A stretch of 43,856 nucleotides of DNA from sequence record PQ850603.1; one strand, 5' to 3'. Source of the DNA: Escherichia phage GertrudWoker_Bas73. The notes under the pieces were generated by a model. That model did no database searches and had not been told where the DNA came from. It saw only the letters and a list, made by a program, of their open reading frames with translations. Shown here in pieces: positions 3,337-41,912 of the stretch; the first letter of the stretch is position 1; every line of letters begins with the position of its first letter. Made by a program: the position numbers and the translations under genes.

Positions 3337-3358
3337 AGCCCCGAAAGGGGCTTTCTTA
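3337..3358 (+). terminator. rho-independent terminator-like hairpin after portal gene
   Basis: 'agcccc gaaa ggggct' stem-loop followed by 'tttctt'. Confidence 0.5.
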
Positions 3359-3362
3359 TAGT

Positions 3363-4439
3363 ATGCTATTAACTTTAGCGCCACAGGGTTTATCTATGAG
3401 CTTACTTACATCCCTAATCAGCCATCAGATATGGCTGCAACGCACCGCATCCGGTGAGGTGAAAGACCTCACGCCGTTCATTCAGGAGATAAGGGATGAA
3501 ATCAAACGGCAGGTGCTGTTATTCGGTGACGACGGTCGCAGCACTGCGCGACTGAATAAACTGTTACGCGACCTGGAAGAAGCACTAACCGGTATTACGG
3601 GTGACTGGCAAACAAAGCTAACAGACGACCTTAAGGAACTGGCGGCGTACGAGGCTGAGTGGAACGTAAAGACACTGACCGCCAACGTAGACGCGGAATT
3701 TGTTACGCCTACCGCTGAGCAGGTATGGGCCGCTGCCGAGTTTCAACCATTATCATTGAGCGACAAGCCCGTTGATTTCACCAAGCTGATGTCTGGATGG
3801 GGCGAAACGGAAGTAGCACGTCTTGTAACTGGAGTTAAGATGGGCTTTGTGCAAGGCCAGACAACACGGCAGATTGTTAAGAATGTTGTTGGCGCTGGTG
3901 GACTAGCCGACATCTCAGAACGTAACGCGACTACGGTAATCCGCACCGCGCTGTCCCACGTATCCAACGAGGCCCGTAACGAGACGTACCGCCAGAACGA
4001 CGACATCATCGAGAAATATGAGTGGGTGTCAACTTTGGACAGCCGTACCAGCACGATTTGCAGGGCCAGAGACGGAATGACGTGGGAAATCGGTAAAGGT
4101 CCGATGCCGCCAGCCCATCCTAATTGCCGAAGTACCACTGCACCGGTAATCAGTTCAGAGTTCGACTTCCTCGATAAAGGCGCAAAACGGGCGGCTAAGG
4201 GCGCTGACGGCGGCACTCAGGTAAGCGCGGACACAACATATTACGAGTTCCTTAAACAACAACCGGCATGGTTCGTGGATGAAGCACTCGGGCCGACCCG
4301 CGGTAAGATTTTCCGCAACAGCGGTATATCGCCGGAGGAGTTTCGCGTAATATCTGTAGATGGTTTCGGGAATCCGCTTACGCTTAAGCAGATGGCGGAA
4401 CTCGATAAACGTGTTGCTGATTATCTGAAAGGGGATTAA
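3363..4439 (+). CDS. head morphogenesis protein (SPP1 gp7 / Mu F-like minor head protein)
   Basis: 358 aa between portal and capsid genes, as in this family; alternative start ATG at 3396. Confidence 0.55.
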   Translation: MLLTLAPQGLSMSLLTSLISHQIWLQRTASGEVKDLTPFIQEIRDEIKRQVLLFGDDGRSTARLNKLLRDLEEALTGITGDWQTKLTDDLKELAAYEAEWNVKTLTANVDAEFVTPTAEQVWAAAEFQPLSLSDKPVDFTKLMSGWGETEVARLVTGVKMGFVQGQTTRQIVKNVVGAGGLADISERNATTVIRTALSHVSNEARNETYRQNDDIIEKYEWVSTLDSRTSTICRARDGMTWEIGKGPMPPAHPNCRSTTAPVISSEFDFLDKGAKRAAKGADGGTQVSADTTYYEFLKQQPAWFVDEALGPTRGKIFRNSGISPEEFRVISVDGFGNPLTLKQMAELDKRVADYLKGD

Positions 4440-4903: not shown

Positions 4904-4930
4904 AAGGCCCCATTAAGGGGCCTTAGTTTT
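4904..4930. terminator. bidirectional hairpin terminator between convergent genes
   Basis: 'aaggcccc attaa ggggcctt' with T-run 'agtttt' downstream and A-run upstream. Confidence 0.6.
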
Positions 4931-5133
4931 CAACGGAATCTTGTGTTTAAATCCTGCTCATGGACAACCCTCAGAACAGTGTCATAATCCCCGTATCTTC
5001 CAGGTTCAAATATATCTAATGCCTTGTAAGCAGACATTGCGTCAAGGAAAACCTGCAGAACCTTTTTAACCCGGCACAAGTCACCGTCGAACTCTTCATC
5101 GAACTCTTGAACTACTTCGCAAATTGCATACAT
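4930..5133 (-). CDS. hypothetical small protein (67 aa)
   Basis: minus-strand ORF with GGAGG RBS (complement of 5140-5144) and its own promoter at 5161-5189. Confidence 0.5.
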   Translation of the reverse strand: MYAICEVVQEFDEEFDGDLCRVKKVLQVFLDAMSAYKALDIFEPGRYGDYDTVLRVVHEQDLNTRFR

Positions 5134-5160
5134 TTTTCACCTCCTGTTTAAGTTAACTGA

Positions 5161-5189
5161 ATAGTACCCTATTATATTGGGGTGTGCAA
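5161..5189 (-). promoter_or_regulatory. sigma70-like promoter TTGCAC-N17-TACTAT with embedded AATAGGGTACTATT palindrome
   Basis: minus strand reads 'TTGCACaccccaatataatagggTACTATtcag' about 25 nt upstream of the 4930..5133 start. Confidence 0.5.
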
Positions 5190-5241
5190 ACTATTTATTT
5201 ACGTATTCCAGTTATTCCACCGAATTGTAAATGTTGGAATA

Positions 5242-5257
5242 AACTATTCGAATAGTT
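5242..5257. repeat. perfect 16-bp palindrome AACTATTCGAATAGTT
   Basis: self-complementary; overlaps the -35 of the promoter at 5256-5284; carries the same CTATTC/GAATAG half-sites as the promoter operators. Confidence 0.6.
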
Positions 5258-5284
5258 GACTTTTCACTGAAAATGTGCTAAGCT
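5256..5284 (+). promoter_or_regulatory. sigma70-like promoter TTGACT-N17-TAAGCT
   Basis: spacing fits consensus; about 225 nt upstream of the Rz start, so it drives a long leader or a short RNA. Confidence 0.35.
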
Positions 5285-5464
5285 CCACCTGAGCTTGTGA
5301 AGTATGAACAAGCGACCGCGGCGCGGGCAGGTAACGGAGCGGGACGTAAGTCCTGAGTGTAGTTACGCTGACGCGTTCGGAAGGGCCATACTCTATTGCT
5401 TGTGTAAAAAGTAACAGGTTTACTTAGATTACGCCGTTTCTATGTTTAAATGATAAGGACTAGC

Positions 5465-5490
5465 GCCCTGCTTTAAGGCAGGGCTTTACT
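5465..5490 (+). terminator. stem-loop / weak terminator in spanin leader
   Basis: 'gccctgc tttaag gcagggc' followed by 'ttt'; located 20 nt upstream of Rz RBS 'gaaagggg'. Confidence 0.35.
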
Positions 5491-5508
5491 TATCGAGAAA
5501 GGGGAAAC

Positions 5509-5895
5509 ATGAATCTTAAAGCAACTGTCGTAGCGGGAGCATGTTTCATCATCCTGGCTTACGCCCACGGCATTTACCAGTATCGCAGCGGCTGGAGCGA
5601 AGGCCGGGCGAATCTCGTTTCGCAGCAACAGCAGAAAGCGCAGGCTGAGTTAGCGAAGAAAACACAACGGCAGCAGCAGGACGAATCGAAGGCAGCCGCC
5701 GCTGACAACGAAGGCAAGACGAAATCAGAGGTGATTACCCGTGAAGTCGTTAAGTACATTAGAACGCCTGGTCGCAGCGTGTGCACTTTTGACCCTGAGC
5801 GCGTGCAGCTCAAGTCCCGCGCCGTCGCAAACGCCAATTCCATCCCCGGATATGACAATGATGCAGCCTCCGTGCAAACTGGCAGCGCCAAGTAG
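5509..5895 (+). CDS. Rz: i-spanin (Rz-like)
   Basis: 128 aa; N-terminal TM helix 'VVAGACFIILAYAHGIY' then Gln/Ala/Lys-rich coiled-coil; contains an embedded out-of-frame lipoprotein ORF. Confidence 0.6.
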   Translation: MNLKATVVAGACFIILAYAHGIYQYRSGWSEGRANLVSQQQQKAQAELAKKTQRQQQDESKAAAADNEGKTKSEVITREVVKYIRTPGRSVCTFDPERVQLKSRAVANANSIPGYDNDAASVQTGSAK

Positions 5896-6004
5896 CGACG
5901 CTGACGAGGATTTAGCTATCGACGTTCAGAACGCTGAATGCGTACGGCAGCTGCGGCTGAAAGTGTTCATGTTGCAGGATTACGTGAGGAATATTCTGGA
6001 ATAG
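5741..6004 (+). CDS. Rz1: o-spanin (Rz1-like outer-membrane lipoprotein), overlapping Rz out of frame
   Basis: GTG start within Rz; signal peptide with lipobox 'LSAC'; Pro-rich mature region 'SSSPAPSQTPIPSP'; extends 109 nt past Rz stop. Confidence 0.5.
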   Translation: MKSLSTLERLVAACALLTLSACSSSPAPSQTPIPSPDMTMMQPPCKLAAPSSDADEDLAIDVQNAECVRQLRLKVFMLQDYVRNILE

Positions 6005-6086
6005 TTGCCTTGTATGTTGGAATAATTTATTCTTGACATGTAAATCCGGGAGGCCCGGATTCCAACGTCCAGGGGACATACTGACT

Positions 6087-13929: not shown

Positions 13930-14256
13930 CTATTTACTTTCTGCGCCTATCGCCCACCCTGTCATTACCATTTGCAGACGGGTGGCTGTCAGTAGGCTAT
14001 AGAAAGCATCTCCGTTTTTCTCTACCGAACGTATCACTGTGTAGGTTACGGCCTGCGGGGGTAGGCCCGATTTACCAACCTCCACGGCGGCCTCACACTC
14101 GCGAACTGTAGAGTCCTTGAACGCCTTTACAATAGTAGGGTCGGCTTTATCAAGCACACCAGAAGTCATAAGAACAGATTCACTAAATACCTGTTCGCAC
14201 GGGGCCCCAAAAGTAGCAAAAGACATAAACCCCAGAGCTAATACTAATTTACGCAT
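13930..14256 (-). CDS. small secreted/periplasmic protein
   Basis: N-terminal signal peptide 'MRKLVLALGFMSFATFGAP'; two Cys; first gene behind promoter 14285-14313. Confidence 0.5.
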   Translation of the reverse strand: MRKLVLALGFMSFATFGAPCEQVFSESVLMTSGVLDKADPTIVKAFKDSTVRECEAAVEVGKSGLPPQAVTYTVIRSVEKNGDAFYSLLTATRLQMVMTGWAIGAESK

Positions 14257-14284
14257 AATTATACCCTCAGTAAGTTACTGGTGA

Positions 14285-14313
14285 ATAGTACCCTATTATA
14301 TTGGGGCGCGCAA
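14285..14313 (-). promoter_or_regulatory. sigma70-like promoter TTGCGC-N17-TACTAT with AATAGGGTACTATT palindrome
   Basis: near-identical to the promoter at 5161-5189. Confidence 0.5.
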
Positions 14314-33152: not shown

Positions 33153-33653
33153 TTATTCTTCTTCGAAATACTTGTTCTTGATTGCCGTCAGGCGTTCCAG
33201 GTATTCGGCCAGGTCTTCGTCTTTAATCGCGGCAATCTTCATCTTCTTACCGGTGAACTCTTCCAGCAGTTCATCAGAATCATCGCACGCGGCATCGCTC
33301 GGACCTTCGTTAATTGCATCGTCGATAGCCTGAATCTGGTCGCGCAGAGACTTATAGTCTACTTCTTCTTTCTCTTCTTCCGGCTCTGGCGTCGTTTCCT
33401 CTACTTTAGCTTTACGCGGCTTGCGTTTTGGCTTCTCTTCCTCCGCCGGTTTAGTGTCAACTACGTCTTCACCTTCAACCGGGATTTCTTTTGTTGCTTC
33501 TTCAGCGCACTCAGCTACCGCTTCTTTGGTGTACGATACCGTCTCTACTTCCAGCGGCGTGGCAACCTGAACAACTTGTTTCGCACTGTTCGCGGCAATC
33601 AGTTCGTGCGCAACTACGAAACGTTCCAGTAATACTAAGAATTTCTCTAACAT
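33153..33653 (-). CDS. hypothetical acidic protein
   Basis: 166 aa with Glu/Asp-rich stretches 'PEPEEEKEEVDY', 'DDSDELLEEF'. Confidence 0.45.
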   Translation of the reverse strand: MLEKFLVLLERFVVAHELIAANSAKQVVQVATPLEVETVSYTKEAVAECAEEATKEIPVEGEDVVDTKPAEEEKPKRKPRKAKVEETTPEPEEEKEEVDYKSLRDQIQAIDDAINEGPSDAACDDSDELLEEFTGKKMKIAAIKDEDLAEYLERLTAIKNKYFEEE

Positions 33654-33677
33654 TATTTATTCTCCTGTTTATTTGGG

Positions 33678-33905
33678 CTACTCGCCGTCGCCTTCTGTAA
33701 GGCTATCGTCTATTAATTCAAATTTACCGTTTGGGTGTTGAATAGCTTCTTGCCCGCAATGGTCGCAGACAACAAGTTTATCGAACCCATCAAACTCATC
33801 CCCTACTACGCAAGAAAGTACAAATTTATGTTTTGTGCACACTTCTTGCGGAGCGCCGAAAATTGCTCGAAAACCTTTAGCTATGGCCCCAGTGATTGTG
33901 TTCAT
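33678..33905 (-). CDS. small zinc-ribbon-like protein
   Basis: 75 aa with Cys pairs 'CTKH...C' and 'CDHC'; preceded by promoter 33934-33962. Confidence 0.45.
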   Translation of the reverse strand: MNTITGAIAKGFRAIFGAPQEVCTKHKFVLSCVVGDEFDGFDKLVVCDHCGQEAIQHPNGKFELIDDSLTEGDGE

Positions 33906-33933: not shown

Positions 33934-33962
33934 ACTATAATAGCGAACTATTCACATGTCAA
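33934..33962 (-). promoter_or_regulatory. sigma70-like promoter TTGACA-N17-TATAGT with AATAGcgaaCTATT palindrome
   Basis: minus strand 'TTGACAtgtgaatagttcgctatTATAGT'; the same region on + strand carries 'TATAAT' facing the Cro-like gene. Confidence 0.5.
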
Positions 33963-34026
33963 TGGGCTTTTCTAAAATAATTAATATGGTACTATTCACA
34001 TATCAACTGACTAAGGAGTAATTGAC

Positions 34027-34242
34027 ATGCAACCATCTGAACTAGGCATCCGTGTAGAACAACGCCGCAAAGAACTCGGCATCTCCCAGCGCCGTTTGGC
34101 GGCCCTGACCGGCGTTTCCCAGGGCGCGATTAACCAACTGGCACTTGGAGTAACTCAGGACGTCCGCCCGGCAACGCTGTTCAAACTGGCGGAAGTTCTG
34201 GAAGTAGACGCCAAGTGGCTGGCGTTAGGTGAAGGGGCTTAA
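34027..34242 (+). CDS. HTH XRE-family (Cro/CI-like) transcriptional regulator
   Basis: 71 aa; 'ISQRRLAALTGVSQGAINQLALG' classic HTH; RBS 'aaggag'; only + strand gene in the leftward block. Confidence 0.75.
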   Translation: MQPSELGIRVEQRRKELGISQRRLAALTGVSQGAINQLALGVTQDVRPATLFKLAEVLEVDAKWLALGEGA

Positions 34243-36558: not shown

Positions 36559-36792
36559 TTATTCCAGGTCTTCTAAAGTAGCGGTCATTCCGCGAACTTC
36601 AGCAACAGCACTATATTTCCCGCCAACATTTTTCACGACACCGGATTTAACCAGTACCTTCAACGACCCTTCAATAATGGCTGAACTATAGTACTTAAAA
36701 TAACTACGGCGCAAGTCGATAACGCTGCACGACCCTTTTTTACGTGTTAACGAAACGACCGCCGTAAATACGCGTGACTGGAACTCGGTCAT
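36559..36792 (-). CDS. hypothetical protein with C-terminal 'TLEDLE' tail
   Basis: 77 aa; stop-start overlap with upstream HTH gene. Confidence 0.45.
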   Translation of the reverse strand: MTEFQSRVFTAVVSLTRKKGSCSVIDLRRSYFKYYSSAIIEGSLKVLVKSGVVKNVGGKYSAVAEVRGMTATLEDLE

Positions 36793-37019
36793 TTCACGTT
36801 CTCCTTAATCCACGCTTCCACTTTCTCCGGGTCAAACGTACCTGGCTGACGGCGGCCCATAATGCGAATACAACAATCCGGGAACTTCCCACTCTTTAAC
36901 CAGTTATTCAGCGTTCGACGAGTAACCCCGATACGCTCAGCTACCTCATTCTGCGTCATTCTCAAACCCTCATTATCAGTTAACGAAACAAGTATACATT
37001 GCGAATAATGGGAAATCAA
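36789..37019 (-). CDS. small HTH DNA-binding protein (AlpA/excisionase-like)
   Basis: 'MTQNEVAERIGVTRRTLNNWLKSGKFP' HTH; likely start at internal ATG (36959) with RBS 'gaggg'. Confidence 0.5.
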   Translation of the reverse strand: MISHYSQCILVSLTDNEGLRMTQNEVAERIGVTRRTLNNWLKSGKFPDCCIRIMGRRQPGTFDPEKVEAWIKENVK

Positions 37020-41861: not shown

Positions 41862-41883
41862 ATCTATTTTCTGCAATGACTAG

Positions 41884-41912
41884 TTGACTATTACCTACGA
41901 CCCTATTATATT
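41884..41912 (+). promoter_or_regulatory. sigma70-like promoter TTGACT-N17-TATATT
   Basis: consensus-like spacing; ~35 nt upstream of the 41946 start. Confidence 0.5.

Follow-up and report, generated by a model that had tools for sequence, protein, structure and literature searches.

Upstream of the spanin genes of Escherichia phage GertrudWoker_Bas73 (PQ850603.1; the whole stretch of 43,856 nucleotides analysed here is referred to as the window), a perfect 16-bp palindrome, AACTATTCGAATAGTT, is formed by the arms AACTATTC and GAATAGTT directly beside a promoter, designated P1. This arrangement raises the question of whether the 16-mer is itself the binding site of a regulator, as was proposed in an earlier interpretation made from the letters of the DNA (the sequence-only reading). 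The window covers all or nearly all of the genome of a siphophage of the Kagunavirus type (Guernseyvirinae); the BASEL phages Bas70-76 share 97% identity with it over this region, and Bas75 is collinear. Guernseyvirinae (Kagunavirus, Jerseyvirus) are among the most often isolated phages of E. coli and Salmonella, and they find use in cocktails for therapy and biocontrol. The coordinates of the features discussed are compiled in Table 1.

Table 1. Regulatory elements, RNA structures and candidate regulator genes of the window.
Feature	Position	Strand	Basis or score
Direct repeat TATTCC-AGT-TATTCC, left edge of conserved block	5204-5218		conservation
Dyad GGAATA-AAC-TATTCG, sharing its right arm with the palindrome (left arm there)	5236-5250		exact motif, conservation
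Perfect 16-bp palindrome	5242-5257		sequence read
Operator-type site CGAATAG-TTGA-CTTTTCA (CGAATAGTTGACTTTTCA)	5249-5266		15.6 bits, rank 10
P1: -35 TTGACT 5256-5261, 17-nt spacer, TG 5276-5277, -10 TAAGCT 5279-5284	5256-5284	+	conservation
Divergent promoter TTGCAC (5189-5184)-N17-TACTAT (5166-5161), exact AATAG-N4-CTATT over -10	5158-5189	-	24.8 bits
Structured leader from P1, about 200 nt, ahead of the spanin genes	5291-5495	+	fold, covariation
Leader, 5' hairpin	5293-5313	+	
Leader, GC-rich multi-helix domain	5316-5380	+	
Leader, terminal hairpin	5465-5484	+	
Second pentamer cluster and probable P2, upstream of scaffold and capsid genes	5989-6060	+	
Probable P2, TATTC-TG-GAATAG	5992-6004	+	
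Probable P2, -35 TTGCCT, followed by N17	6005-6010	+	
Probable P2, -10 TATTCT	6028-6033	+	
Dyad GGAATA-ATT-TATTC, encloses P2 -10	6019-6032		
Hairpin at predicted 5' end of the P2 transcript	6044-6060	+	
AATAG-N4-CTATT in spacer of TTGACA-N17-TATAGT promoters	26889, 31221, 33939		
AATAG-N4-CTATT over -10 of TTGCAC-N17-TACTAT promoters	5160, 14284, 37416, 38722		
AATAG-N4-CTATT-type sites over -35 TTGACT of plus-strand promoters	5251, 41879		
Top 11 18-mers	3355, 5158, 5249, 14282, 26887, 31219, 33937, 33981, 37414, 38720, 41877		weight matrix
Operator-type site TGACTAG-TTGA-CTATTAC, embeds -35 TTGACT of a plus-strand promoter	41877-41894		13.4 bits
71-aa Cro/CI-type HTH protein, candidate regulator	34027-34242	+	Pfam HTH_3, E = 3.9e-13
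About 60-aa HTH_17 (Xis/MerR-like) protein, second candidate	36792-36974	-	Pfam HTH_17, E = 2.4e-7

The plus-strand packaging and head genes are followed by a bidirectional terminator (4904-4924), a minus-strand gene encoding 67 aa (4930-5133), a gap of 375 bp, the spanin genes (5509-6004), the scaffold gene, and then the major capsid protein gene. The gap (5134-5508) had been described as non-coding and as containing a divergent promoter at 5161-5189; both are present in the sequence, and the only open reading frame in the gap is a non-conserved one of 36 aa. The divergent promoter drives the 67-aa gene. As a separate observation, the 32-bp operator-promoter block at this promoter (TGAATAGTACCCTATTATATTGGGG.G.GCAA) is duplicated at 14282-14313 with 30/32 identities, and both copies drive small minus-strand genes inserted in the plus-strand run of structural genes. 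Most of the gap belongs to a conserved block (5204-5508), with 93-99% identity across 178 phage records, Salmonella phages included. The blast alignments of many relatives break at query position 71, corresponding to window position 5204, and this left edge of conservation coincides with a TATTCC repeat. The block, comprising P1 and its leader, also occurs in Jerseyvirus FSL SP-101; within the block, variation is found only in the promoter spacer and at 5219-5222. The spanin protein is only 65-97% identical and is thus less conserved than the block preceding it, which suggests either horizontal exchange of a module or very strong constraint. A search for an E. coli host origin of the region gave no match among 5,426 E. 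coli genomes, and the corresponding region of Serratia phage Eta proved not to be homologous. Scanning of the window for tRNA and tmRNA genes (ARAGORN) gave no match. In phage horsemountain, a tRNA-Ser is annotated on the minus strand at 575-652, over the 3' end of a Hoc-like gene and a terminator; this annotation, on the opposite strand over the upstream terminator, is unrelated and probably a false prediction.

The 16-mer is self-complementary over its whole length, as the sequence-only reading had stated. Its symmetry ends at 16 bp, with a5241 and g5258 unpaired. It occurs as a single copy in the window, where the next-best match has three mismatches, and no other perfect 16-bp palindrome is found there. 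In first-order Markov simulations, 0.84 perfect 16-bp palindromes are expected per window and at least one appears in 58% of the simulated sequences; palindromy alone is therefore not beyond chance, and the 16-mer is notable only through its context. What does exceed chance in that context is a cluster of five pentamers, the conserved non-coding block, and the overlap with an operator-type site above background. As single-stranded DNA, the 16-mer forms an AT-rich 6-bp stem of only -1.8 kcal/mol, and a terminator scan gave no call at this position; a hairpin, cruciform or terminator reading was rejected on these grounds.

The TTGACT-N17-TAAGCT promoter that had been reported to abut the palindrome is present, and its footprint is conserved across three genera. 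The earlier description lacked the extended -10 TG dinucleotide. With a -35-like hexamer, a spacer of 17±1, TGn, and the A2 and T6 of the -10, P1 has the features of a sigma-70 extended -10 promoter; a generic consensus scan gave no call here because the -10 matches at only 3/6 positions. The aligned sequences fall into three groups: group A holds Kagunavirus-type loci, group B Jerseyvirus, SETP7 and Jersey among them, and group C Cornellvirus FSL SP-031. In Kagunavirus, Jerseyvirus and Cornellvirus alike, T-N-GACT, TG-n (where n is any of a, c, g and t) and TA-nn-CT are found at fixed spacing, and the variable positions of P1 are 5268, 5269, 5275 and 5278. Such fixed core elements with a variable spacer are the footprint expected from a working extended -10 promoter. 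The P1 start site is predicted at approximately 5291-5292, placing the palindrome centre (between 5249 and 5250) at -41.5 or -42.5 if transcription starts at 5291 or 5292, respectively. Using host RNA polymerase, P1 would restart plus-strand transcription past the terminator at 4904-4924. Literature searches for transcription studies on the subfamily returned genome announcements only, with no transcription map or transcriptome paper among them.

The sequence-only reading had taken CTATTC and GAATAG as the half-sites of promoter operators. Both hexamers indeed match the dyad AATAG-N4-CTATT, which occurs in the window 7 times exactly and 11 times at up to one mismatch, compared with about 1 expected. 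All seven exact copies lie at promoters in differing registers, a variability that speaks for an operator rather than a promoter element and that repressor operators typically show. When the seven exact sites were used to construct a weight matrix, it yielded 11 top sites of at least 13.4 bits, followed by a gap down to 10.5 bits. One of these, at 3355-3372 (17.0 bits), lies over the start codon of the head morphogenesis gene with no promoter evident, directly following a terminator-like hairpin located after the portal gene.

By the same matrix, all windows centred on the palindrome score below -10 bits, because its half-sites face the wrong way for an AATAG-N4-CTATT operator. The head-to-head arrangement that had been noticed is correct: the half-sites are everted in the 16-mer (CTATTC.GAATAG), with no spacer and 6 bp from centre to centre, compared with 10 bp in the operator GAATAG-N4-CTATTC; using both arms would be impossible for a rigid dimer of the Cro type. 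The 16-mer thus falls outside the AATAG-N4-CTATT set, whereas the overlapping window 5249-5266 falls within it. The earlier suggestion of a high-affinity site for the same regulator can be retained in one respect, in that the factor binding the AATAG-N4-CTATT dyad very probably acts at P1 too, but the 16-mer itself is not its site, and certainly not one of high affinity.

Only 0.03 sites as good as 5249-5266 are expected by chance in random sequence. This site (GAATAG-TTGA-CTTTTC) has one mismatch to AATAG-N4-CTATT, located in a core position, uses the right arm of the palindrome, and covers the P1 -35 hexamer, a location at which an operator probably represses. Judged from these sequence matches, the P1 operator likely uses the right arm only and is weaker than the consensus sites. 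Within the operator-type site at 41877-41894, TTGACT is in the same register as at P1, and the SETP7 homologue of that site is AATAGTTGACTAGT. At P1 itself, the palindrome is missing from SETP7, but this phage carries a one-mismatch site of its own, AGTAGACTTCTATT, displaced to the right by 3 bp; it looks as if SETP7 has independently kept an operator over the -35 of P1.

A motif of this kind has been published for Kagunavirus fBC-Eco01, where PHIRE reported the 'phage promoter' motif tgAATAGTa-ccTATTat-T (PMC9825357), which was interpreted as the promoter of a phage RNA polymerase. The AATAG-N4-CTATT element recurring in the window is this same motif, and the GenBank record of fBC-Eco01 carries a PHIRE-predicted phage promoter at the divergent site beside the gap; the palindrome and the shifted P1 -35 site are not described in that paper. 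The annotation of Bas75, a close relative, lists no gene for an RNA polymerase. Given the variable registers within sigma-70-type promoters and this annotation, an operator is the better reading of the PHIRE motif. The published "phage promoter" motif can thereby be reinterpreted as about 11 operators, probably of the Cro type, a weak one of which lies over the P1 -35.

Among the proteins that could act at these sites, the 71-aa Cro-like protein is, judging from sequence, most likely the best candidate repressor at P1. Among solved structures, it is most closely related to phage 434 Cro and the 434 repressor, both of which recognise 14-bp operators as dimers. Two operator copies (33937-33954 and 33981-33998) lie upstream of its gene, and homologues occur in 4/4 lineages examined. 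The recognition helices of the Cro-like proteins differ between the window and SETP7, though the operator is shared. The HTH_17 protein, 88% identical in SETP7 and absent from FSL SP-031 and PSDA-2, in which AATAG-N4-CTATT is also absent, tracks the operator type equally well. FSL SP-031 and PSDA-2, which encode an identical Cro-like protein, carry promoters with ATATTA-N6-TAATAT instead (at 14065, 14680, 17747, 26543 and 33279 in the former; at 36, 3088, 3789 and 25399 in the latter). A single half-site position accounts for most of the difference between this operator and AATAG-N4-CTATT, and the Cornellvirus/PSDA-2 pair of operator and repressor looks, by comparison of the sequences, like a natural switch of specificity.

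Conservation of the palindrome was examined in 36 related IMG/VR loci (group A). It is perfect in 31 of them, and the remaining five have 1-2 changes that break the symmetry and are uncompensated; the flanks (5204-5241 and 5258-5267) are as conserved as the palindrome within this group. TATTC-GAATAG-TTGACT in group A corresponds to TATTC-(A/C)AAAAG-T(A/G)GACT in groups B and C, the same position reading CTTTATTCAAAAAGT(A/T) in Jerseyvirus and TATTC(A/C)AAAAGT in Cornellvirus. These relatives retain P1 without the palindrome, which is thus a lineage-specific derived state, and none of the six differences between groups A and B inside the 16-mer is mirrored on the opposite arm. FSL SP-101 combines a perfect palindrome with a Cro-like allele that is 97% identical to that of SETP7 and 49% identical to that of the window, indicating that the palindrome is not tied to one regulator allele; a linkage between palindrome and regulator allele was rejected accordingly.

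These data bear on the possibility that the 16-mer itself is a symmetric dimer site specific to the Kagunavirus-type module, bound either by a dedicated repressor or by a class II-type activator at about -41.5 that would touch sigma region 4 or the alpha subunit. The perfect 8+8 symmetry would speak for such a site, as would the distance of its centre from the predicted start (41.5-42.5 bp upstream), which is where class II sites classically lie, and its strong conservation within the lineage; the 31/36 perfect copies would also fit direct selection on the palindrome. Known class II sites (CRP/FNR at -41.5; lambda CI at OR2/PRM; Mu Mor/C at about -43.5) would, if the predicted start holds, share a dyad in this position that touches the -35. 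However, class II promoters have a poor -35 and depend on the activator, whereas P1 has TTGACT, with a 5/6 match to the -35, and an extended -10, leaving no obvious need for activation. A dyad would also be expected wherever an activator-dependent promoter is kept, but the P1 core persists in Jerseyvirus and Cornellvirus without it, and no activator gene was identified. Moreover, the variants are uncompensated and the flanks equally conserved, FSL SP-101 shows no coupling to a lineage-specific regulator, and 0.84 perfect 16-mers per genome arise by chance. We therefore consider a dimer site of this kind quite improbable.

The left arm of the palindrome belongs to a different element. GGAATA-N3-TATTC has two exact occurrences in the window (5236 and 6019), and GAATA/TATTC pentamers are grouped in fives at two places (5204-5254 and 5989-6032), compared with 0.003 clusters of at least five expected. 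Both clusters hold TATTC, followed after 0 or 2 nt by GAATAG, directly before a TTGNCT hexamer. At P1, TATTCC-N3-TATTCC and GGAATA-N3-TATTC(C) are kept in groups A, B and C, the direct repeat at 5204-5218 being invariant in group B, nearly so in group A, and present in Cornellvirus. At P2, the core GGAATAG-TTGCCT-N17-TATTCT is nearly invariant, also in Jerseyvirus, Cornellvirus and PSDA-2. The arrays are thus retained in FSL SP-031 and PSDA-2 despite their other operator, ATATTA-N6-TAATAT, and such persistence in spite of a changed Cro-type operator makes a different reader probable. In the Pfam and PHROGs scans, which took in 20 selected proteins, the small proteins of the all-lineage core matched only PHROGs of unknown function, the Cro-like HTH protein excepted, and yielded no DNA-binding reader of the arrays. 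To our knowledge, the pentamer dyad does not fit in spacing the motifs of the E. coli factors ArgR, Fis, Lrp, RcsAB, CpxR, H-NS or sigma-54. In PSDA-2 (33645-33681), the array TATTCC-N3-TATTCC / GGAATA-N3-TATTC is inverted relative to the structural genes, with a gap of 8 bp between its parts compared with 16-17 bp elsewhere; some 150 bp separate it from P1, which lies downstream and is quite different there.

Such arrays could also be explained by one multimeric late-gene regulator that reads all five P1 pentamers, both palindrome arms included, as well as the P2 array. The operator resemblance of 5249-5266 would then be secondary, and the palindrome a lineage-specific reinforcement making P1 resemble P2. 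The statistical excess of the two clusters, the parallel between TATTC-N0-GAATAG-TTGACT at P1 and TATTC-N2-GAATAG-TTGCCT at P2 with GGAATA-N3-TATTC common to both, and the persistence of the arrays in Cornellvirus and PSDA-2 are in line with this possibility, and the inverted PSDA-2 array suggests a binding module that works in either orientation. However, the core small proteins scanned yielded no candidate, and the three relative arrangements of the pentamers would be hard to accommodate for one rigid oligomer. Also against it, the fifth pentamer is absent at P1 of Jerseyvirus and Cornellvirus, and the left arm at P2 (TATTC-TG), which falls within the last codons of the o-spanin gene, is missing from Cornellvirus and PSDA-2. 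A single regulator for all pentamers is accordingly unlikely in our judgement. Independently of a single regulator, the right arm is perhaps the counterpart of the GGAATAG at the P2 -35; since GGAATAG is kept there even in lineages with a different operator, the right arm may belong to the factor reading the pentamer arrays and not to the Cro-like protein.

Downstream of P1, the conserved block is predicted to be transcribed as a structured leader, the terminal hairpin of which lies just 5' of the spanin ribosome-binding site. The fold has a z-score of -2.35, and RNAalifold (group A and B sequences) yielded 25 pairs, of which 9 show compensatory changes. In the leader alignment, 98% of the cells are paired, and the covariation score of 0.387 compares with at most 0.087 when the partners are slid by 1-3 columns; independent covariation events are few, since the sequences form only two clades. 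Rfam searches gave no credible match (whole window at gathering threshold; 5270-5520 at E-value threshold). The terminal hairpin is conserved and covarying, and is followed by the T-run TTTACTTAT in the window and by TTAGCGTAT or TGTTACGAT in relatives. Jerseyvirus has a deletion of the start region of the 36-aa ORF (5304-5414); all that recurs of this ORF is a short AFGR stretch, which coincides with a conserved RNA motif. Because of this start deletion and the RNA covariation in the region, a coding reading of the gap was rejected; several GenBank records annotate a 'hypothetical protein' of 36 aa there, which on sequence comparison is probably not a gene.

The conservation of the block could also have another cause. 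If the symmetry had no specific function and neither arm were bound, the AT-rich stretch could serve as a UP-like or curved-DNA element, and the conservation would reflect recent recombinational spread of the whole P1-leader module. The A-tract AAAAAG at the same position in relatives does resemble a proximal UP subsite, much of the conservation may be recent transfer given 93-99% identity in the block against 65-97% in the spanins, and the chance expectation of 0.84 leaves the palindrome itself unremarkable. However, the weight-matrix match at 5249-5266 together with the shifted SETP7 site is unlikely to arise by chance, the pentamers cluster far beyond chance, and the variation of the block is limited to the promoter spacer and 5219-5222, which makes the absence of any function about as improbable as a dimer site. 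In a further, tentative reading, which we hold to be unlikely, the GAATA arrays would be the landing pad of a late-gene regulator and would form, with the leader RNA, an undescribed control module for lysis and capsid genes of Guernseyvirinae; the Kagunavirus palindrome would then be a strengthened variant of the array.

Collectively, the palindrome is most likely the accidental seam of two neighbouring regulatory elements and not a binding site of its own; for this explanation as a whole, with a Cro-type repressor on the right-arm operator, we put the chances at about even. The right arm, GAATAG, would be the left half-site of a 14-bp AATAG-N4-CTATT-type operator of moderate affinity, the second half of which, CTTTT, would lie inside and just past the -35 hexamer. 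By binding to this operator, a dimeric repressor of the phage, most likely the 71-aa 434-Cro-like HTH protein, would bar sigma-70 from the -35 and lower P1 activity. The left arm, CTATTC, would be the right arm of the separate and more deeply conserved dyad GGAATA-N3-TATTC, which as part of the P1/P2 pentamer arrays probably has another reader. An ancestral TATTC-AAAAAG became TATTC-GAATAG in the Kagunavirus-type lineage by two or three substitutions, which set both elements back to back and thereby created a perfect palindrome; the symmetric 16-mer would therefore not be the recognised unit. As a speculation, repression could be reconciled with late expression if the weak -35 operators were freed once replication had raised the copy number of the stronger early operators, drawing the repressor away by titration. 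The adaptive value of an early repressor acting on the promoter of lysis and structural genes is not obvious. What the analysis shows directly are the sequence features with their statistics and conservation; we infer protein binding, the identity of the binders, the start site and the direction of regulation from sequence. In summary, the palindrome is real and regulatory but composite, and belongs to a fairly ordinary phage promoter architecture; it adds little itself, and the pentamer arrays and leader RNA are more interesting. If confirmed, these elements would provide a first outline of how lysis and capsid genes are timed in Guernseyvirinae, as well as parts (operator, repressor, promoter) for engineering Guernseyvirinae phages.

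Compared with known systems, the gap resembles the lambda PR'-qut-6S RNA-tR' module in that a promoter gives rise to a non-coding transcript of about 200 nt ending in a GC-rich hairpin, placed directly before the lysis genes and then the head genes. However, the hairpin has a weak T-run in the window and none in Jerseyvirus and Cornellvirus, and the P1 leader has a conserved internal structure, which lambda 6S RNA does not need. No Q-like gene was noticed, and no Q-family antiterminator is named in the annotation of Bas75, in which many genes are unannotated hypotheticals. The resemblance is thus positional only, and the PR'/tR' (Q/qut) analogy was rejected because the T-run is not conserved as it would be in an efficient terminator. 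The closest known system is the Cro operator arrangement of phages 434 and lambda. There are differences, in that the phage of the window is virulent, with no CI partner or immunity region seen, its operators are spread over about 11 promoters whereas theirs are gathered in one tripartite region, its half-site is AATAG rather than ACAA, with binding predicted from sequence, and the everted half-sites of the palindrome have no counterpart in 434 or lambda. As with the Cro-CI operators OR1-OR3, however, a small Cro-type HTH protein is paired with 14-bp dyad operators, several copies graded towards the consensus lie over the -35, spacer or -10 of promoters for the host polymerase, and two operator copies adjoin the regulator's own gene.
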